A stretch of 8,488 nt of DNA from a virus (taxonomy: Duplodnaviria > Heunggongvirae > Uroviricota > Caudoviricetes). A model generated the notes under the pieces. The model had not been told where the DNA came from, did no database searches, and saw only the letters and a list, made by a program, of their open reading frames with translations. Positions within the stretch are counted from its first letter, which is position 1. Each line of letters opens with the position of its first letter. The stretch is from the IMG/VR virus record IMGVR_UViG_2531839449_000010, positions 1 to 8,488 of that record; one strand, written 5' to 3'. The translations under genes were made by a program, and so were the position numbers. This document shows, one piece after another, positions 1 through 6,554 of this stretch.

Positions 1-395
1 AGCTGGTCAGGTCGTTCTGCCACGAACTGACGGTTTACGCGGTCGCCTGCGGCAACGGCTTTCCGGCTGATGGTCGTACGGACCTTTTTACCCCGGAGAA
101 CACCGGCAAGTCCCATAACCGCCATGAGACGTGCCACTGTACATCTGGCCACCCTGATTCCTTCCCGTAACAACTGACGCCAGACTTTACGCACACCGTA
201 CACCTGATGATTTTCATCGTATACGCGCTGTATCTCTCTCTTCAGCCAGTCGTCGTGCTGCGCACGGGCACTGCGTTTATCCGGATGATGTCGCTGTTGC
301 TGACAATGGTAATACGTTGACGGGGCAATATGCAGTTCGCTGCATACCGGTCCGACCCCGTACTGCTCACGCAGCTTATCCAGCAGTGGCATCAT
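1..395 (-). CDS. IS3-family transposase OrfB (DDE integrase-type), N-terminal part only; normally expressed as an OrfAB fusion by -1 frameshift
   Basis: Hand translation of the rc from 395 gives [132 protein letters not shown], open to the window edge. It is in the -1 frame relative to orfA and is absent from the ORF track because no stop lies in the window. Confidence 0.8.
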
Positions 396-718
396 TTTTT
401 CCAGAGGCGGTCGAACTCCGCCTTCGCAAAATAAGCGGAAGCCTGGCGAAGGATATCGTTACTGCGGCGCAGTTCACGATTTTCACGTTCCAGCTCTTTC
501 AGACGCTGACGTTCAGCGCTGGTGAGCCCACCATCACCGCCCCCGGTATCCCGCTCATGCTGGCGAACCCAGACACGCAGAGTCTCCGGCGTACAGCCAA
601 TCTTTGGGGCAATGGAGCAAATTGCCGCCCACTGTGAGTCATATTCATCCTGACTTTCCAGAACCATACGAATCGCCCGCTGACGGACTTCGGGGGAAAA
701 ACGAGTATTTTTAGTCAT
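392..718 (-). CDS. IS3-family transposase OrfA (helix-turn-helix DNA-binding subunit)
   Basis: 108-aa [33 protein letters not shown]..., identical to the right-hand copy at 7942..8268. C-terminal leucine-rich heptad region ([20 protein letters not shown]) is typical of IS3 OrfA. AGG at 731..733, 9 nt upstream of the ATG, is a possible Shine-Dalgarno. Confidence 0.9.
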
Positions 719-723
719 CCTGT

Positions 724-1326
724 TTACCTCTTTCTCAGGGAGTTTAGTCTCCAGGATTTCCGGGGCGGTTCAACCATCTCAATGGATGGTGTTCCGCATT
801 GGTTACCCCAGACATCAAATCCATGCGAGGTGTGACGGGCGAACAGTTCTATCCGGGGAACATCGCCAAGAAGTTGCACAAGTTTTTCTCGCGCCATATC
901 CGGCTTGCGGGAGTGATCAAGGCGCGGTGCAGTGAATGACTGGATTATTCCGGCGTTAATGCGTTCAGGCAGATTTCCTTTCACTGCAAAAAGGCAGTCT
1001 TCGCTGTTAGCGCGAGTGGTGCTACCCATACCCATGACCAGCTTGTCGGTCTGTCTTTTCCCGCATTTGTTCCAGGTTAATCCTTTCATCGTCACCAGAC
1101 GAAAGCCCCACGCTTCTACAACCTTCAATGCTTCAAGTGGTTGTGTAGGCACCCACCACATAGCCAACAGGCAATTATCGGCTGCCAGTTCCCATACCGG
1201 GAGGCGGCAGATATCCAGAAGACTCATGACCGGATATTTAAAACTTGCACCGCGTTGACCATCGGTTGCTTTGTCTCGGAATGTCCAGGGGGGATCTGCG
1301 TAAATGAGAGTGTATTTTTTCGTCAT
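724..1326 (-). CDS. MT-A70-family DNA N6-adenine methyltransferase (phage orphan methylase); 3' end interrupted by the IS, so residues 186-200 are IS-encoded
   Basis: N-terminal motif LIYADPPW (catalytic DPPW). The ATG at 1324..1326 overlaps the stop of the upstream gene (ATGA). The reading frame crosses the IS boundary at 772/773; the tail [15 protein letters not shown] is translated from IS terminal sequence. Confidence 0.8.
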
Positions 1327-1526
1327 AGCGCGTTTTCAAACTCATCAATGTAAAGTGCAACAAGTGCAACGCATCGTCTGAAATCGGCTGCGTCATGTGG
1401 AGCACCGAAGCTATGACCATAGATATTCTTTTTCAGTCCACATGCGATTGAGGCAAGAGTTGCGCTACTGATGCCAACATCGCCAGTCGATTGCCATTTC
1501 AAAACCTTCATAGCCAAATCTGACAT
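1323..1526 (-). CDS. hypothetical small prophage protein (67 aa)
   Basis: ATG at 1524..1526 preceded by GGAGA at a 7-nt spacing. Stop overlaps the methyltransferase start (ATGA), suggesting translational coupling. Confidence 0.55.
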   Translation of the reverse strand: MSDLAMKVLKWQSTGDVGISSATLASIACGLKKNIYGHSFGAPHDAADFRRCVALVALYIDEFENAL

Positions 1527-1539
1527 TTCTTGTCTCCAT

Positions 1540-1563
1540 AAAACAAAACCCGCCGTAGCGAGT
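1540..1563 (-). terminator. candidate intrinsic terminator (distal of a tandem pair)
   Basis: Minus-strand RNA ACUCGC-UACG-GCGGGU forms a 6-bp stem (one G.U) with a tetraloop, followed by UUUGUUUU. Lies between the stop at 1645 and the next start at 1526. Confidence 0.4.
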
Positions 1564-1566
1564 TCA

Positions 1567-1594
1567 GATAAAAGAAATCCCCGCGAGTGCGAGG
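1567..1594 (-). terminator. candidate intrinsic terminator (proximal of a tandem pair)
   Basis: Minus-strand RNA CCUCGC-ACUC-GCGGGG forms a 6-bp stem (one G.U) with a tetraloop, followed by AUUUCUUUUAUC. Same stem design as the hairpin at 1540..1563. Confidence 0.4.
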
Positions 1595-1644
1595 ATTGTT
1601 ATTCATTGCCGATATTCACCTTTATCGCGAACACCTTTACCGGT

Positions 1645-1887
1645 TTATCTCCTTTGCATGGCGCGTAATTTTTTCAGATGGTTCTCCTGCTCTGTTTCAG
1701 CCAGAATTTGTCGGTATTCCTGGTGATCGATCCGTTCAAACAGTTCATTAAAATCGTTTATTTTTACCGACTGTGTTCGCCCATCCATTCTTCTGTACAA
1801 CACAGTGTTGTTTATGCAGCGAAGAATTTTTATCGGGTAGCCGGCGCTATCGGTGTATATCTGACCACGTTGAATCAGAGCGAACAT
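1645..1887 (-). CDS. hypothetical small prophage protein (80 aa from the ATG at 1887; the track ORF extends to a TTG at 1941)
   Basis: Open frame 1645..1941. The TTG at 1941 has AGGAG directly abutting it (spacing too short), so I prefer the internal ATG at 1885..1887 (MFALIQRGQIY...). The start is uncertain. Confidence 0.4.
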   Translation of the reverse strand: MFALIQRGQIYTDSAGYPIKILRCINNTVLYRRMDGRTQSVKINDFNELFERIDHQEYRQILAETEQENHLKKLRAMQRR

Positions 1888-1961
1888 TCCTTTATCCCCA
1901 GCGGAAAAGCGAATACAGAATAAATGCCACCGCGATTGCAACTCCTACAGCGGTGAATGCT

Positions 1962-2312
1962 TCAGGCCAATTCATCATTCACTCCCTGCGGCGGTTCTGG
2001 TAGCAGCATCCAGTACAAGGCGTTCCCTAACCACGATAAAGTGCCGTCGCTCAACTCCACGTATTCCTCTTGTACCTGTCCTGCCATATACTCACCGTGC
2101 TTTGAATAAATTAAAATCCAATCATCTTGAGCGGGCATTCGCTCACTACAGCTTATCCAACCACCCGGACTTACCGGAGAGTTGCCAGTCTTACGCATGG
2201 CAATCTCCACGATTTCAACCATATCTCCTGGCAGAATTTTACAAAGCTGGCCAAAGCGCCTCTGCTGCCTGGCATACTCGAGGATGTGCTCCAGTTTGGT
2301 TCGATTAATCAT
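1962..2312 (-). CDS. DUF551-like prophage protein (115 aa)
   Basis: C-terminal segment GWISCSERMPAQDDWILIY...GEYMAG...YWMLLPEPP resembles the DUF551 pattern (WIS..ERLP...W.PLPEPP) as I recall it. ATG at 2310..2312 overlaps the upstream stop (ATGA). Confidence 0.5.
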   Translation of the reverse strand: MINRTKLEHILEYARQQRRFGQLCKILPGDMVEIVEIAMRKTGNSPVSPGGWISCSERMPAQDDWILIYSKHGEYMAGQVQEEYVELSDGTLSWLGNALYWMLLPEPPQGVNDELA

Positions 2313-2764
2313 GATTTATCTCCCTTAAGCATGGCAGCGCGGCAGGCATCCTCTACGCCCTTAACTGCATCTGCGCAGTAGTTATAGCGATTGCATTCCA
2401 CTAACTTCTGCTTGAGGTTTTCAATTGCTTGCGCGACATCAGCCTGTATTACCGGAACTGGCGGAGTGGTATATAGTTTTCGGCATTTGTTTATCCAACC
2501 GGCATGGTCAGGCGTGTCTGTAAAGCGCAAATCGTTTTCGTAGCCCTCACGACTACGTTCTTTCCATTCCGTCCACGGAACACCGCTATTCCAAGTGGGG
2601 CGAGTGCAGGACTGATACAGAACAGGTTCAGCTTCCAGCGCTGCCAGAGCAATCCGTGCCAGTTCTTCCGCTTCTTCTGCTGGCAGTACAACGTTGCTAC
2701 CAGGTCCGTATGTTTCGCGCCACTGCTTGATTGTCAGCAGTCGCTCTTTGGTAATAGTGGTCAT
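2309..2764 (-). CDS. hypothetical prophage early-region protein (151 aa)
   Basis: ATG at 2762..2764 preceded by GAGGA at a 7-nt spacing and overlapping the upstream stop (ATGA). No family recognised. Confidence 0.55.
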   Translation of the reverse strand: MTTITKERLLTIKQWRETYGPGSNVVLPAEEAEELARIALAALEAEPVLYQSCTRPTWNSGVPWTEWKERSREGYENDLRFTDTPDHAGWINKCRKLYTTPPVPVIQADVAQAIENLKQKLVECNRYNYCADAVKGVEDACRAAMLKGDKS

Positions 2765-2970
2765 TTGTTAATCCTCAAAACTTTATGCCCGGGCGCAAAA
2801 GCACGCGTTTTGTCTTTGCTTATTCGCCAGCCATCCTTGCGCGCCTCTTTTGCACAGCCAGCCCATGACGTACCTATATACTCACCGAAGTCTGGCGACT
2901 TATATTTGCCATCTGTACACTGGAGGCAATCACAATAGAGATGCATGGTGTAACTTGCAGCAATAGCCAT
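2761..2970 (-). CDS. small cysteine-rich (putative zinc-binding) prophage protein, 69 aa from the internal ATG
   Basis: The track ORF 2761..3042 overlaps the upstream gene. The ATG at 2968..2970 (MAIAASYTMHLYCDCLQCTDGKYK...) has a strong AAGGAGAG Shine-Dalgarno 6 nt upstream and sits 1 nt after the upstream stop. Contains a C-x-C-x2-C ... C pattern. Confidence 0.55.
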   Translation of the reverse strand: MAIAASYTMHLYCDCLQCTDGKYKSPDFGEYIGTSWAGCAKEARKDGWRISKDKTRAFAPGHKVLRINK

Positions 2971-2971
2971 A

Positions 2972-3319
2972 TCACTCTCCTTTAGTGCGCAAGTGGTTTT
3001 TCCAGCGGTTTTGCTCCGCGCTGGGCTTTTTGCAAAAACCACAATCCATCATCCCGTAATATTTCATCAACCCCATCCGTCGGTTGCTGAGTCTCACCCA
3101 CTGCCAGACGCCAGGAGCGTTTCTACGAACTAACAGAATCTTTGCTTTACGGTTTTTCATCGTTTTGCTCTCCTGCATCTCTTTGCTGCTCGTCGTGCCG
3201 CTGCAATACCGGTATGGCGGCGCTTTGGTGTCGGGATGATGTTCTTTGCAATTAGCGCAGAAGCCCAAAAACGAGTCGGATACGGTAACAAACTGATACA
3301 TGCCACACGCATTACTCAC
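2972..3319 (-). CDS. cysteine-rich putative zinc-finger protein; start uncertain (GTG at 3319 gives 115 aa, ATG at 3161 gives 63 aa)
   Basis: Continuous open frame with Cys pairs (FCANCKEHH...YRYCSG and MMDCGFCKK). The GTG at 3317..3319 overlaps the upstream stop by 8 nt but has a poorly spaced AAAGGGGG. The internal ATG at 3159..3161 has a strong AGGAGAG at a 7-nt spacing. Confidence 0.45.
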   Translation of the reverse strand: MSNACGMYQFVTVSDSFLGFCANCKEHHPDTKAPPYRYCSGTTSSKEMQESKTMKNRKAKILLVRRNAPGVWQWVRLSNRRMGLMKYYGMMDCGFCKKPSAEQNRWKNHLRTKGE

Positions 3320-3860
3320 CCCCTTTGTTGCTAATGCTTACAGCCTGGCAAGCCTCTTTGAGTACCCAGTCAACAGCGTCTTTCCATGCTCCGGTTTCAA
3401 CAGATGGATTCTCACGCTTTACCTGTTCATAAAAGCGCACTGCTTTAATCAGTTCTTCCGGTACTACTGGCGATGCCTGTTTAGCTTCTAAATCAGCAAT
3501 TCTGTCAACCACGGCATCTACTGCATCTGAAAAACTGAAACAGTTACTCCATTCCGGCCTGTCCCCGGTTGCTGCAAAATACATATCAGCTAAAGCAGAC
3601 TCAGCATGGTCACGCTCATTAATGAGTTGCTCTTCGCTTTTCTCCTGTTCGGCTATGCGCTTACTTCCATCCGCGATTACTCCCTCGTAATACTCACGCT
3701 GCTCGTTGAGTTTTGATTTTGCTGCTTCCAACTCATCCAGTAGCGCCAGCACAACCTGAGGTGTGGCTTTCATACGAAATGCCAGCAATTTTTGAGGCGT
3801 TGCTACTGTTTCAATTGCTACTGCCGCCTCACGCAGTGCCTGGTAATTAATTTCGCTCAC
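3312..3860 (-). CDS. Ead/Ea22-like prophage protein (182 aa, GTG start)
   Basis: N-terminus (V/M)SEINYQALREAA... is the Ead/Ea22-like family signature as I recall it, followed by a coiled-coil-like charged heptad region. AAGGAGG lies 6 nt upstream of the GTG at 3858..3860, which overlaps the upstream stop (GTGA). Confidence 0.6.
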   Translation of the reverse strand: MSEINYQALREAAVAIETVATPQKLLAFRMKATPQVVLALLDELEAAKSKLNEQREYYEGVIADGSKRIAEQEKSEEQLINERDHAESALADMYFAATGDRPEWSNCFSFSDAVDAVVDRIADLEAKQASPVVPEELIKAVRFYEQVKRENPSVETGAWKDAVDWVLKEACQAVSISNKGGE

Positions 3861-4621
3861 TGGTTGCCTCCTTTGCGAAGCTCAGCGGCGAAAGATGTTG
3901 CTGCGGAAGCGATAATTGCATGCCGGTATTCACCATCAGAAAATAAAGAATCTCCCTTAAGTGCATTGACGATACTCTGATGATTTTTTGCCAGCATCTC
4001 CACGCCCTGCGCCCGTACTTCAGCCAGGCATTTGCGAAACTCGGAAACGTACTGTTCGACGCTCATTCCCCAGCTAAGTGGACATTCATTGAATGTTTCG
4101 CCTTCGTGCTCTTCATCAGGTAGCTCTTTGGTAAAGAACTCACGCTCAATGGCGTGGAGTGTGTCAGCAAAACGACGTAAGTTACTCAAACCTACCGTAA
4201 TGGAGAATTCAGGAGCATCACATCCGACGCCCATCTGCTGATAAACTGCTGTTTTGAAGGCCTTCAACTCCGCATTCTCCGCCGCCAGAGCCGAAAACTT
4301 CTCGTGTGCCAACTTAACAGCCGAATCAGCCTGCTTAATTGACTCAATCGCTTTCTGTTGGTCTTCGGCCAGCTTCGCTAAATTAGCCTCCAGTTCGGCC
4401 ATGCGTTCGTTTAATGCATCTCGTTCATCCAGTAGTGACAGCACGGTTTCTGGCCCGGCCATAATTTTAAAGGCGTGAATCGCATCAATATCAATACCAA
4501 GCTCCTTGAGCTTCTTTTCGCTTAATAAATCATCATCACCTGGTAATATTGACAGATGTGTCATCGCTGTAATTGCGCGTTCCGACACGTCACGCAATAC
4601 CTGATAGTCAATTTTGCTCAC
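3857..4621 (-). CDS. Ead/Ea22-like prophage protein, second tandem paralog (254 aa from the GTG at 4621)
   Basis: The track ORF 3857..4969 (370 aa) is over-extended. The in-frame GTG at 4619..4621 (VSKIDYQVLRDVSERA...) has the same AAGGAGGCAACCA-GTG initiation context as the paralog at 3860. The upstream stretch 4622..4969 is accounted for by two other coupled genes. Confidence 0.55.
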   Translation of the reverse strand: MSKIDYQVLRDVSERAITAMTHLSILPGDDDLLSEKKLKELGIDIDAIHAFKIMAGPETVLSLLDERDALNERMAELEANLAKLAEDQQKAIESIKQADSAVKLAHEKFSALAAENAELKAFKTAVYQQMGVGCDAPEFSITVGLSNLRRFADTLHAIEREFFTKELPDEEHEGETFNECPLSWGMSVEQYVSEFRKCLAEVRAQGVEMLAKNHQSIVNALKGDSLFSDGEYRHAIIASAATSFAAELRKGGNQ

Positions 4622-4856
4622 TGGTTGCCTCCTTTGTGGATCTGCGCTGCGATGCACGAAAAAAAGATTCCCGCGTATGACAGTTAAGAGCTGGTGCGAA
4701 AGCCGCGTTAAGAACGGCAGCATCACAGCCGTCATCGATATAGAGCGCAATTTTTTTCTCCAGGCGCGCTTTGGCTTCCTGCAACTGCATACCCCGGCAC
4801 GTACGCGGGATATACTCAGCAATTTGAGCGATAGATTTTTCGTTCTGTTTAAACAT
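4608..4856 (-). CDS. hypothetical small prophage protein (82 aa)
   Basis: ATG at 4854..4856 overlaps the upstream stop by 8 nt (ATGTTTAA). Its own stop lies 14 nt inside the next gene. No family recognised. Confidence 0.5.
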   Translation of the reverse strand: MFKQNEKSIAQIAEYIPRTCRGMQLQEAKARLEKKIALYIDDGCDAAVLNAAFAPALNCHTRESFFRASQRRSTKEATSEQN

Positions 4857-5052
4857 GCTTCACCTCGACAGGCTTGATTGTGTCGATCAGCAGTCTGCGG
4901 CGCGTATTTTCTGCAAAGTGGCGGCGTCCGGTTTCTTTGTGGTAAAACTCGTTTTTGCCGACGACCCACATCCGCTCTGTCTGGTGAAGTTTTTTTACCT
5001 GCGGGCCGCCTTTGGTGATCACAATGCCGGTATGGGTTTTTACGATTGTCAT
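4849..5052 (-). CDS. hypothetical small prophage protein (67 aa)
   Basis: ATG at 5050..5052 overlaps the PAPS-reductase-like stop (ATGA), with GAGG 9 nt upstream. No family recognised. Confidence 0.5.
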   Translation of the reverse strand: MTIVKTHTGIVITKGGPQVKKLHQTERMWVVGKNEFYHKETGRRHFAENTRRRLLIDTIKPVEVKHV

Positions 5053-5927
5053 GCCACTACCTCTTCGAATTTCAACTCCAATTGGTCACCCCAGATTTCA
5101 CATGATTCGGAACACGAACCAGTATCAAACCGCTTGGCCAGCACCATCGCTTGATACAAATTGCTGTAGTCGCTGTCGGCATACATCCTGGCAATCCCGT
5201 CAAGCGTCAGGTGACCACGGTACATAACGTCTTTACCTGTTCTGCGATGACCATCCCTGACGTGTTTGCCTGTAACCAGTTCATTAAAAACCCGCATCAG
5301 ACCAGGTTCGTCTTTACATGCAAGCCCCAGCTTTTGCGTTGACTTTTTGATGCAGAAAACACAGTTCCCGAGGTGCTCCGGGATTTGCAAATCAAAAGGT
5401 TGTTTTCGCCACCACCGGATAACATCCGACTTATCAAAATCTGACAGTTCGGCAAGATACCGGACGCCCGGTTTCGGTTTCAGCCTACGGGGTTCGTCTG
5501 CACGAATACCCAGCCACGTGATGTAGTTCCCTTGTCCGAAATGGTCATCGCAGTATTTTGTGAAGGGGGTGAGTTTTAATCTGTCAGTGCAGAACGCGCC
5601 GCCGATGTATGGCGTGCCATATTTTTTTACCATGTCCATAAACGGTTTAAGCACCGGCATTCGCGTCTGAATATCCTTTGGTTCCCATTCCGTATAACCA
5701 TTTGGCTGCCCAAGCTCTGGATTTATATCGACCTGCAACACGGTTAGCGGAATATCCCAGAACTTCACAACCTCCCGAATAAACCGGTACGTCAGCGGGT
5801 GTTCACATCCCGTATCCATGAGTATGTAATGAACGTTTTCACCAGCTTTTCTGCGTTGCTCCATAAGGTGGACGAGGTACGCCGATGTCCGACCGCCTGA
5901 AAAACTCACAACATGATGAGTGCTCAT
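5049..5927 (-). CDS. phosphoadenosine-phosphosulfate (PAPS) reductase-like PP-loop ATP-pyrophosphatase family protein (292 aa)
   Basis: N-terminal PP-loop motif VVSFSGGRTSAYL (SGGxxS). C-terminal cysteine pairs (CVFC, CSESC). Complete ORF starting at the ATG at 5925..5927. Confidence 0.8.
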   Translation of the reverse strand: MSTHHVVSFSGGRTSAYLVHLMEQRRKAGENVHYILMDTGCEHPLTYRFIREVVKFWDIPLTVLQVDINPELGQPNGYTEWEPKDIQTRMPVLKPFMDMVKKYGTPYIGGAFCTDRLKLTPFTKYCDDHFGQGNYITWLGIRADEPRRLKPKPGVRYLAELSDFDKSDVIRWWRKQPFDLQIPEHLGNCVFCIKKSTQKLGLACKDEPGLMRVFNELVTGKHVRDGHRRTGKDVMYRGHLTLDGIARMYADSDYSNLYQAMVLAKRFDTGSCSESCEIWGDQLELKFEEVVA

Positions 5928-6034
5928 TTCTTCGTCTCGTTACGGGGAGGGGGTTAAATAGGTGGTAAGCTGGAATTGCCGGATGTTTACCCGTGTCCGG
6001 GGTACGGCCTCACGTTGCAGCGTACGAGAATGGA

Positions 6035-6478
6035 CTATTGCTCAGTGTCGTTTGATGTCGGCTGAGGATATTCGCCTTGCTCTTGTAACAGAGTTAGAAG
6101 AATGGAAAACCCCTCACGATGTGATGATTGATGAGTGTCGATCCCGGAATGATTGATGTTGTTAAATTCCAACATCGTGCTCCTGGCGATAGCCTCAACG
6201 GTATTCCAGAATACTAATACATCTGTTTTCTGCTCTGTTTTATCAGCAACAGGAAGTTTGATATTTTGTTGAAATTTATTAATGCAACCATTTTGAATAT
6301 GTTCCTCGTGCTTTTCATTGTCATAAGCATACAGCCCGACAAAAACATCTCGCACGTTACGGGATATATTTTCCAGATTCGCCTTTGGTTCCTTTGTTAA
6401 ATCAAGCACCGATAAATGGGCTTTAAGCGTATCCGCAGCTATTTTCTGAATATCCTCTGGTAAATCTTTAAATTGCAT
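6035..6478 (-). CDS. hypothetical protein (147 aa), AT-rich moron-like gene
   Basis: ATG at 6476..6478 with GGAGGG at a 7-nt spacing. Hand count gives about 37% GC for 6181..6480, against about 45-50% in neighbouring genes. No family recognised. Confidence 0.55.
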   Translation of the reverse strand: MQFKDLPEDIQKIAADTLKAHLSVLDLTKEPKANLENISRNVRDVFVGLYAYDNEKHEEHIQNGCINKFQQNIKLPVADKTEQKTDVLVFWNTVEAIARSTMLEFNNINHSGIDTHQSSHREGFSILLTLLQEQGEYPQPTSNDTEQ

Positions 6479-6554
6479 AGTATACCCTCCAAGAACTGTG
6501 TATTTTCTCGTGAAATATGAGCGATATGTCGTGACGTCCCTGTCACAGATTTCA

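Follow-up and report, generated by a model that had tools for sequence, protein, structure and literature searches.

The orf147 locus

We analyzed a window of 8,488 nucleotides (nt) from a Caudoviricetes virus (the whole stretch from position 1 to 8,488 of IMG/VR record IMGVR_UViG_2531839449_000010), with a focus on a minus-strand gene whose product has 147 amino acids (aa). We will call this gene orf147; its coordinates and those of the other features are in Table 1. The window begins and ends within inverted copies of an insertion sequence (IS), and the ~7.2 kb between the two copies are from the leftward early region of a lambdoid prophage of the Shiga toxin (Stx) type. The gene order in this operon is exo, a gene for a 195-aa protein, a yfdP-like gene, yfdQ, orf147, a gene that resembles phosphoadenosine phosphosulfate (PAPS) reductase, and an Ea22-like gene. 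According to PMC12315714, yfdP and yfdQ are of unknown function and are frequent in early left operons.

The same genes are found in intact relatives. In Escherichia coli O103:H2 12009, a single strand encodes the repressor region, Rha, a kil-like protein, gamL, RecT, exo, and the 195-aa protein; these are followed by the yfdP-like gene, yfdQ (DUF2303), orf147, the PAPS-reductase-like gene, and two small open reading frames (ORFs), and then by Ea22, DUF551 genes, an MT-A70 methylase, and xis/int. The annotation of strain 2014C-3307 gives the same picture. In both genomes, exo, RecT, and gamL lie upstream of orf147, while Ea22, DUF551, the methyltransferase, and int/xis lie downstream, all on one strand. 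Because orf147 lies between exo and xis/int in these intact relatives, it is a gene of the exo-xis region.

The orf147 protein is identical in Shigella phage Ss-VASD and is 99% identical in many Stx2a phages (such as PA2, ArgO145, and VT2phi_272). The exact protein occurs on at least 1,000 public contigs, and its names there are always hypothetical or uncharacterized. Among complete E. coli genomes, the locus is present in 126 of 5,426 (~2.3%). RefSeq genomes and Stx phages carry the gene as "hypothetical protein". In short, orf147 is an ordinary hypothetical gene that is already annotated in hundreds of genomes of Shiga toxin-producing E. coli and of Stx phages.

orf147 belongs to a small family of protein-coding genes

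We compared residues 1-60 of orf147 to homologs of the Rac, Qin, and phi367 types. The ratio of nonsynonymous to synonymous substitution rates (dN/dS) was 0.20-0.42, at dS values from 0.25 to above 1. The protein matches PHROG 1363 ("unknown function") with E = 2.4e-64, and the alignment places residues 1-128 on positions 1-138/139 of the profile. Rac-type and Qin-type prophages encode homologs that are 37-40% identical. Given the low dN/dS, the strong Shine-Dalgarno (SD) sequence before the start codon, the membership in PHROG 1363, and these homologs, the comparisons indicate that orf147 is a genuine protein-coding gene.

To find more distant relatives, we used an exhaustive profile search with HMMER against 1.84 billion representative proteins. 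This found 13 relatives (E <= 1e-3), none of which is annotated. An indexed homology search found 19 close relatives; those with a named source are all from E. coli, and again there was no annotated relative. As judged from these searches, the family is small, fast-evolving, and confined to enterobacterial prophages. The indexed search missed the query's own full-length cluster. This would be explained by a 90%-identity cluster that has YfdQ as its representative and that mixes YfdQ and orf147 sequences, presumably due to chaining via a fused or mis-called ORF.

A sequence-only reading of the window had reported that the product matches nothing recognizable. As far as named functions go, this is correct: we found no match in Pfam, NCBIfam, PADLOC, or the sequences in PDB. 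It does not extend to PHROGs, as the match to PHROG 1363 is clear. Searches for similar folds with models of orf147 gave no match that would name the product. One phage record (AP012534) labels the protein as a NinB homolog; we rejected this label because neither Pfam nor PHROG supports it. The papers on the exo-xis region that we inspected do not mention orf147, and a literature search by protein accession returned nothing.

The orf147 protein is acidic (isoelectric point of 5.0, net charge of -9) and hydrophilic, with no hydrophobic or membrane segment. We ran AlphaFold2 with alignments of 10 and 15 sequences, and neither run gave a reliable fold (pLDDT, the predicted local distance difference test, of 57.6 and 53.4). 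With low confidence, the models contain two helical hairpins (residues 8-24/31-54 and 87-107/115-134) and a disordered linker (residues 52-85). The N-terminal helices (8-24 and 31-54) have pLDDT of ~70, and residues 136-147 are below 50. Remote homology and structure prediction had been suggested as a check on the novelty of the product, and they identified neither a homolog among well-characterized housekeeping proteins of phages nor a reliable fold.

The family has a constant N-terminal hairpin and exchangeable C-termini

The N-terminal helical hairpin (residues 1-55) is common to PHROGs 1363, 9419, 2151, 6937, and 33007. Residues 74-147 match another cluster, PHROG 25397 (E = 7.4e-33), which includes proteins with a different N-terminus. 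In alignments (with P0013-P0017 for the C-terminal part), we distinguished three modules that have been shuffled: A, the N-terminus; B, an alternative middle or N-terminal module; and C, the C-terminus of orf147. Proteins of types A+C, B+C, and A+B are all found, and orf147 itself is of type A+C. Across 49 distinct proteins, the consensus at 80% or above is MEFKDLP...Q..AA......L....L....K........NVR..F.GLY, and no position after about residue 52 is conserved. The split of these proteins across six PHROGs mirrors their mosaic C-termini; these are not six separate families.

DNA comparisons locate the junctions. The window and phi367 are similar as far as 6256 (residue 74) and again from 6011; the phi367-type gene has a different 3' half. 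Similarity to PhiR12_3 ends at 6030, just beyond the stop codon of orf147. On the other side, similarity starts at 6011 for phi367 and at 6006 for PPompW. A composite origin had been suggested from base composition, since the last 40 or so codons (6038-6160) seemed richer in GC than the rest of the gene. The gene is indeed composite, with junctions at ~6256 and ~6011-6030 instead of 6160. The difference in composition (44.7% GC in these 123 nt versus 37.4%) exists as well, but as a step within the gene it is not significant (Fisher p = 0.19).

The A+C architecture is not a recent fusion, as Rac-like prophages encode a homolog (P0020) with the same architecture and only ~40% identity. In an allele shared by TL-2011c and strain NCCP15648, orf147 has a stop at codon 132. 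Overall, the alignments and breakpoints indicate that the family combines a constant N-terminal hairpin of ~55 residues with a hypervariable C-terminal region that has been swapped by recombination.

A decayed convergent gene lies under the 3' end of orf147

Opposite the 3' end of orf147, the plus strand has a 64-codon ORF. Only part of this ORF (6031-6156, or 43 codons plus the stop codon) is homologous to the C-terminus of a convergent gene of 96-99 aa that is intact in relatives. The homology is based on alignments of translations from four loci (L014, L017, L007, and L008). The intact protein is MDKKLNQARW...WTIAQCR...SRND in the ST866 prophage (L014) and begins with M(A/V)SKLNQ... in the Rac-like prophages (L007, L008, and L017). 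The N-terminal half of the convergent ORF lies outside of the overlap, and yet it is conserved between L014 and L017, so the convergent ORF is a real gene in these relatives. The intact protein has also been called in a few assemblies (P0028). We will refer to the convergent genes at this and related loci as cargo genes.

The spacing of the remnant indicates how it arose. The distance from a conserved leader element (described below) to a tryptophan codon of the cargo gene is 52 nt in the window and 252 nt in L014. Thus, a deletion of ~200 nt has removed the SD sequence, the ATG, and ~53 codons of the cargo gene. In sister alleles, the cargo frame has TGG->TAG at 6032. In a Rac-like prophage of E. 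coli ARS-C301 (L016, ~1330-1400), the convergent 99-aa gene has CAG->TAG and GAA->TAA while the orf147-family gene is intact. By its sequence, this is a second independent case in which the cargo decays and the family gene is kept.

The GC-richer stretch of 123 nt nearly coincides with the part that formerly encoded both proteins (6031-6156). Intact cargo genes of this type have 41-45% GC overall, and the overlap is their GC-richest part (42-49%). Dual coding may be the cause of the higher GC content of the tail. Substitutions within the overlap do not point to one frame. In a deep comparison (by our own count), identity was 56% in the antisense frame versus 39% in the sense frame. Substitutions in deep comparisons were spread evenly across the classes of codon position (12/14/12). 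Among close relatives, the polymorphic columns included 13 sense wobble positions, 7 antisense wobble positions, and 5 shared first positions (p = 0.26).

A conserved leader precedes diverse cargo genes

The leader contains a 22-nt inverted repeat (CCGGATGTTTACCCGTGTCCGG, with arms of 5+5), which forms hairpin 1. The pattern across loci is CCGGAT-N4-A-N-CCGTGTCCGG, with a second stem after it. In the window, the second hairpin is truncated by the deletion, so that only its 5' arm and loop remain. The 22-nt element was exact or nearly so in 13 of the 19 loci that we fetched first. It is also found in the Qin prophage of E. coli K-12, between ydfC and dicF (NC_000913.3 1649108-1649129), where the number of copies expected by chance is 0.00.

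On the plus strand, the 22-nt element is followed by CGCACG, by the second hairpin, and, ~45-55 nt further on, by a strong SD sequence and the ATG of a convergent ORF. At least 10 unrelated small ORFs are preceded by the leader in this way in Stx-, Rac-, and Qin-type prophages. Each of these cargo genes consists of one ORF (57-101 aa). They include the 96-aa type with WTIAQCR, a Zn-ribbon-like protein of 80 aa (phrog_10133), a 77-aa protein (phrog_10348), and a 73-aa protein in phi367. Neither the 96/99-aa proteins nor the other cargo proteins match Pfam at E <= 1, any PADLOC model (so no known defense system), or any PHROG with a function.

We scanned IMG/VR and GTDB for the leader pattern and identified 139 loci with both the 22-nt element and CGCACG. 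(In GTDB, most loci were dropped once CGCACG was required, and we therefore took these as chance matches; they were from unrelated genomes, mostly of high GC content. Only a few enterobacterial loci from GTDB proved useful.) At 44 of the 139 loci, the leader is accompanied by both genes, with the orf147-family gene convergent to the cargo ORF. Another 35, which include loci of the window's type, have the orf147-family gene only, and 12 have the cargo ORF only. The remaining 48 have neither gene; these are of the K-12 Qin type, with ydfC abutting the leader.

Where both genes are present, they are always convergent, and their 3' ends overlap by 0-131 nt. At L005, L008, L009, L014, L017, and L018, we confirmed that the convergent pair lies within the early left operon. 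We also clustered the cargo proteins (ten clusters) and the C-termini of the orf147 family (eight clusters). The pairing between them is almost one-to-one, which gives a nearly diagonal table.

Within hairpin 2, we found one compensatory pair, five single changes that are kept as G-U pairs, and four broken pairs. The changes that are kept by G-U are suggestive of an RNA structure, as they fit a structure on the cargo strand only. Scans near the leader at L014, L017, and L009 found no sigma-70 promoter consensus. Because the leader coincides with the ends of the similarity blocks at 6011 and 6006, its position is consistent with a conserved linker for the exchange of modules.

Rfam identifies C4 antisense RNA and isrK beside the cassette in the ST866 prophage (L014 202-397, minus strand). 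In PPompW, it identifies DicF (L005 3454-3505, plus strand) at a distance of 250 nt downstream from the leader. This places the cassette in a part of the operon that is rich in small RNAs.

Low GC content is a trait of the family

The sequence-only reading had also proposed, from a hand count of ~37% GC at 6181-6480, that orf147 is a moron that was acquired separately from its neighbors. The count was accurate (37.3%), and only 0.8% of the 300-nt windows are as AT-rich. (The lowest, at 35.7%, starts at 6207.) The whole of orf147 has 39.4% GC, compared to 48.9% for the PAPS-reductase-like gene, 48.1% for yfdQ, and 48.6% for the window. GC content at third codon positions (GC3) is 0.38, compared to 0.51-0.53 in both neighbors. 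When orf147 is compared to the remaining phage DNA (39.4% versus 48.0%), the difference is significant (Fisher p = 5e-4), so exact computation with a sliding window and GC3 did not bring the gene back within the normal range. Along the gene and beyond it, GC content rises from 35.9% (6256-6478) to 40.4% (6157-6255) and 45.4% (6038-6156), and it reaches 55.1% in the spacer downstream of orf147.

This deviation does not imply a recent import. The yfdP-like gene (7440-7787) has 40.8% GC and is nearly as AT-rich, so low GC is not peculiar to orf147 within this block of genes. More importantly, the homologs of orf147 from Rac-, Qin-, and Stx-type prophages all have 39-41% GC. As these prophages have unrelated backbones, AT-richness is a trait of the whole family and not the mark of a recent import.

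orf147 is part of the early operon

If orf147 were a moron, it would be a cassette that was acquired and is transcribed independently, that inserted between yfdQ and the PAPS-reductase-like gene, and that is expressed from the prophage to the benefit of the host. Besides its composition, a few observations fit with this. orf147 lies between non-coding gaps of 76 nt and 107 nt; a distant yfdQ has another downstream neighbor (yfdR in K-12 CPS-53, as indicated by the title of PMC4776307); and one genome, H150, matches the region only over the yfdQ part. However, three of the four features that define a moron were not found, with the deviant composition as the fourth. In a consensus scan of 5700-6800, the only promoter-like site (6324-6296) was inside the ORF, and shuffled sequences gave 1.9 +/- 1.4 sites. 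The 76-nt gap upstream of orf147 has no promoter-like site (by consensus scan, which is not a transcript map). Downstream of 6035, the minus strand has no terminator-like site; the sole hit was on the plus strand and inside the ORF. RNA folding of 5928-6040 was no better than for shuffled sequences on either strand (z = 0.75 and -0.31).

Nor does orf147 come and go as a moron would. Of the 127 E. coli genomes with this yfdQ allele, 126 have the 5' half of orf147 contiguous with it, and only the very distant yfdQ of K-12 CPS-53 differs. The block from 7887 to 6030 is collinear in all of the relatives among Stx phages. The presence or absence of orf147 across related prophages had been suggested as a check, and it turned out that the variable piece is another one: TL-2011c lacks segment 5924-4614, which contains the PAPS-reductase-like gene and the ORF after it, so that its similarity to the window breaks off at 5924 and continues at 4614. 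orf147 is on the strand of the early left operon and has a tight position within it. Its homologs in Rac- and Qin-type prophages are in the same operon and have equally low GC content. (They follow ydfC in Qin- and PPompW-type prophages and a DUF1391 gene in Rac-like prophages.) Because there are no signals above chance, and because of the operon strand, the linkage to yfdQ, and the low GC content across the family, an independently inserted moron is not supported, and we consider it improbable. Instead, orf147 belongs to the leftward early (pL-type, exo-xis) operon as an accessory gene. Composition alone had misidentified a moron; linkage, the mapping of junctions, and scans for signals decided the matter.

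Comparison to known systems

The closest functional analogs of orf147 are the exo-xis proteins of lambda and Phi24B (Ea8.5, Orf60a, Orf61, Orf63, and Ea22), which have been little characterized, if at all. They are encoded in the same compartment as orf147, from exo to xis/int in the leftward early operon. They are small, non-essential, poorly conserved, and expressed very early, and an Ea22-like gene lies a few genes downstream of orf147 in the window. In PMC3824215, PMC7093339, and PMC8614690, the exo-xis proteins are described as modulators of the lysis-lysogeny decision. Our Pfam and PHROG searches found no sequence or profile similarity between these proteins and orf147. To our knowledge, neither a constant hairpin with a variable tail nor a convergent partner gene is a described feature of exo-xis proteins.

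For the cargo slot, the closest parallels are sieB and esc (P22, lambda, and Rac) and the cargo of morons and hotspots. In P22, esc lets the phage escape the effect of a gene that is expressed by the prophage and that lies inside the pL operon. In the Rac prophage of K-12, sieB is convergent to ydaF and fills the slot where Rac-like prophages have an orf147 homolog and the 99-aa cargo gene. The systems differ in several ways. Neither the cargo proteins nor orf147 match SieB in Pfam, and we found no homology. The sieB of K-12 is not preceded by the 22-nt element, unlike the cargo genes. Also, esc is produced from within sieB and in the same frame, while orf147 is a separate, convergent gene. 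(SieB is an exclusion system of P22, according to the abstract of PMC10883804.)

Hendrix-type morons and the P2/P4 hotspots for antiviral systems likewise have variable small genes of deviant composition between conserved flanks in collinear prophages (PMC3594210 and PMC9122126). Here, the moron-like unit is the cargo gene on the opposite strand and not orf147, and the variable segment also takes in the 3' half of a conserved gene. As for PHROGs 1363, 25397, 9419, 2151, 6937, and 33007, the relationship is direct by hidden Markov models, but these clusters have no assigned role. Of the groups that we compared, orf147 is a member only of PHROG 1363 and of the positional class of exo-xis genes.

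Proposed role and alternative explanations

We think it probable, though by no means assured, that orf147 is an accessory gene of the early operon, from a mosaic family, with a decayed convergent partner and a role in binding. The gene would be translated from the early left transcript soon after induction or infection. Its product would be a small, acidic, soluble, all-helical binding or adaptor protein; as it has no catalytic motif, we do not expect an enzyme. By analogy to the exo-xis proteins, its partner would probably be another protein during early lytic growth. The constant hairpin might serve as a docking or oligomerization module and the variable C-terminus as a specificity module. 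In the ancestral cassette, transcripts of the early operon that read through orf147 would be antisense to the convergent cargo gene, and the variable C-terminus was possibly matched to the cargo protein. In the window, the cargo partner has been lost, and orf147 is kept alone.

Two alternatives concern the reading frame itself. That orf147 is an AT-rich non-coding spacer that is open by chance might seem to fit with the lack of a known domain and with the low-confidence models, but the ORF is kept in three prophage lineages at 37-40% identity, it follows a consensus SD sequence at the correct spacing, and several PHROG families have been built on it. With dN/dS far below 1 at saturating dS, this explanation is effectively refuted, and we give it almost no weight. 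A more serious suggestion is that the true product is a module of ~60-110 residues (hairpin 1 and helix 3), with the last 40 codons as a functionless read-through that overprints the cargo gene by accident. PHROG 9419 covers just the N-terminus, as a profile of 64 positions, the overlap is better kept in the antisense frame in the deep comparison, the TL-2011c/NCCP15648 allele stops early, and pLDDT is below 50 for residues 136-147. Yet the PhiR12_3-type junction falls exactly after the sense stop codon (at 6030), which leaves the sense ORF whole while the antisense gene is destroyed. Changes among close relatives lean towards sense third positions (albeit with p = 0.26), and the A+C architecture has been retained in P0020 at ~40% identity. 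A shortened product is therefore quite unlikely in our view.

Another explanation starts from the cargo. It supposes that the cargo gene, at the site where K-12 Rac has sieB, is expressed in the lysogen and encodes an exclusion, abortive-infection, or toxin protein, and that the cognate orf147-family protein, which the early operon would produce first, neutralizes it via the matched C-terminus, by the logic of sieB and esc in P22. orf147 in the window would then be an orphan antidote. The convergent arrangement without exception, the nearly diagonal pairing of 10 cargo and 8 C-terminal clusters, and the joint absence of both genes from the 48 loci of the K-12 Qin type all fit with this idea, as do the position of sieB in K-12 Rac, where it converges on ydaF at the corresponding site, and the pairing of hairpin 2 by G-U changes that are workable only in RNA from the cargo strand. 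However, adjacency between two conserved flanks for recombination predicts the same co-inheritance, so linkage alone suffices to explain the pairing. Furthermore, most of the alleles from Stx phages keep orf147 with the cargo gene deleted or stopped, which suggests that orf147 is useful without cargo. The cargo proteins match no model in Pfam or PADLOC and no functional PHROG, including the SieB and toxin families, and our scans revealed no promoter consensus for the cargo genes. The pair also does not resemble a toxin-antitoxin system: there is no match in Pfam, NCBIfam, or PADLOC, and the genes are convergent instead of co-transcribed. We consider an antidote function unlikely. The broader proposal, of a previously undescribed and hypervariable two-gene cassette in Stx-, Rac-, and Qin-type prophages with a cargo that is driven or regulated by the leader and with variable parts that are functionally matched (such as an exclusion or toxic factor of the lysogen and a neutralizer that is expressed early), is rather doubtful. 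If it is true, then the locus is a compact hotspot of diversity in defense and counter-defense, and the copy in the window has decayed so that only the neutralizer is left.

Returning to the accessory-gene account, orf147 adds little by itself, as it is one more uncharacterized accessory gene of the exo-xis region. The variable cassette is more interesting than orf147, which is ordinary overall. It amounts to a natural experiment in which the segment between the conserved N-terminal module and the conserved 22-nt leader has been exchanged at least 10 times for unrelated small convergent genes. If the variable parts interact, then the cassette would be a compact and testable source of phage exclusion and anti-exclusion proteins in clinically relevant Stx prophages.

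Neighboring genes and the ends of the window

Table 1. Features of the window and copies of the leader at other loci. Positions refer to the window unless a locus is named.
Feature	Position	Strand	Evidence or remark
IS3-family copies	1-723 and ~7888-8488	inverted	RefSeq IS1203 match
ALIL frameshift pseudoknots (IS3-family)	321-437 and 8223-8339	- and +	Rfam
Ea22-like ORF, 370 aa, GTG start	3857-4969	-	Pfam Ead_Ea22 match begins at residue 118
PAPS-reductase-like gene	5049-5927	-	GC 48.9%
Antisense ORF, 64 codons, GTG start	5962..6156	+	remnant, not a gene
Leader hairpin 1, 22-nt inverted repeat	5979..6000	+	conserved across loci
Leader hairpin 2, truncated (5' arm and loop only)	6007..6023	+	L014 alignment; deletion junction ~6023/6024
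orf147, 147 aa plus stop, ATG start	6035..6478	-	ORF list
Module C of orf147, residues 75-147	6038..6255	-	disordered linker and second predicted helical hairpin; PHROG 25397
Module A of orf147, residues 1-74	6256..6478	-	GC 35.9%; PHROG matches, alignments, phi367 breakpoint
Shine-Dalgarno GGAGGG, 6 nt upstream of the orf147 ATG	6485..6490	-	sequence inspection
Leader copies elsewhere	L014 1501-1560; L017 1245-1300; L005 3179-3200

Although we refer to a PAPS-reductase-like gene, its product is not a demonstrated PAPS reductase. Its best match in a library of defense proteins is SspD (PADLOC, E = 9e-15), with weaker N-terminal matches to DndC and BrxP. These matches suggest that it is a protein with the ATP-pyrophosphatase fold. 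Downstream of it, the Ea22-like ORF is longer (370 aa) than the Ead/Ea22-like proteins that related prophages encode at the same position (225-241 aa). Its N-terminal ~110 codons are probably untranslated or from another mosaic piece.

The IS copies at the two ends of the window belong to the IS3 family, under the RefSeq name IS1203; the left end matches with 100% identity. Besides the ALIL pseudoknots of these elements, an Rfam scan of the window found nothing. In the MT-A70 methylase gene (ORF 724-1326), similarity to the intact prophage stops at 772, and the 195-aa gene, which is upstream of the yfdP-like gene, is truncated at ~7887. This 7.2-kb fragment between IS copies looks like a composite transposon or the remnant of a decayed prophage.

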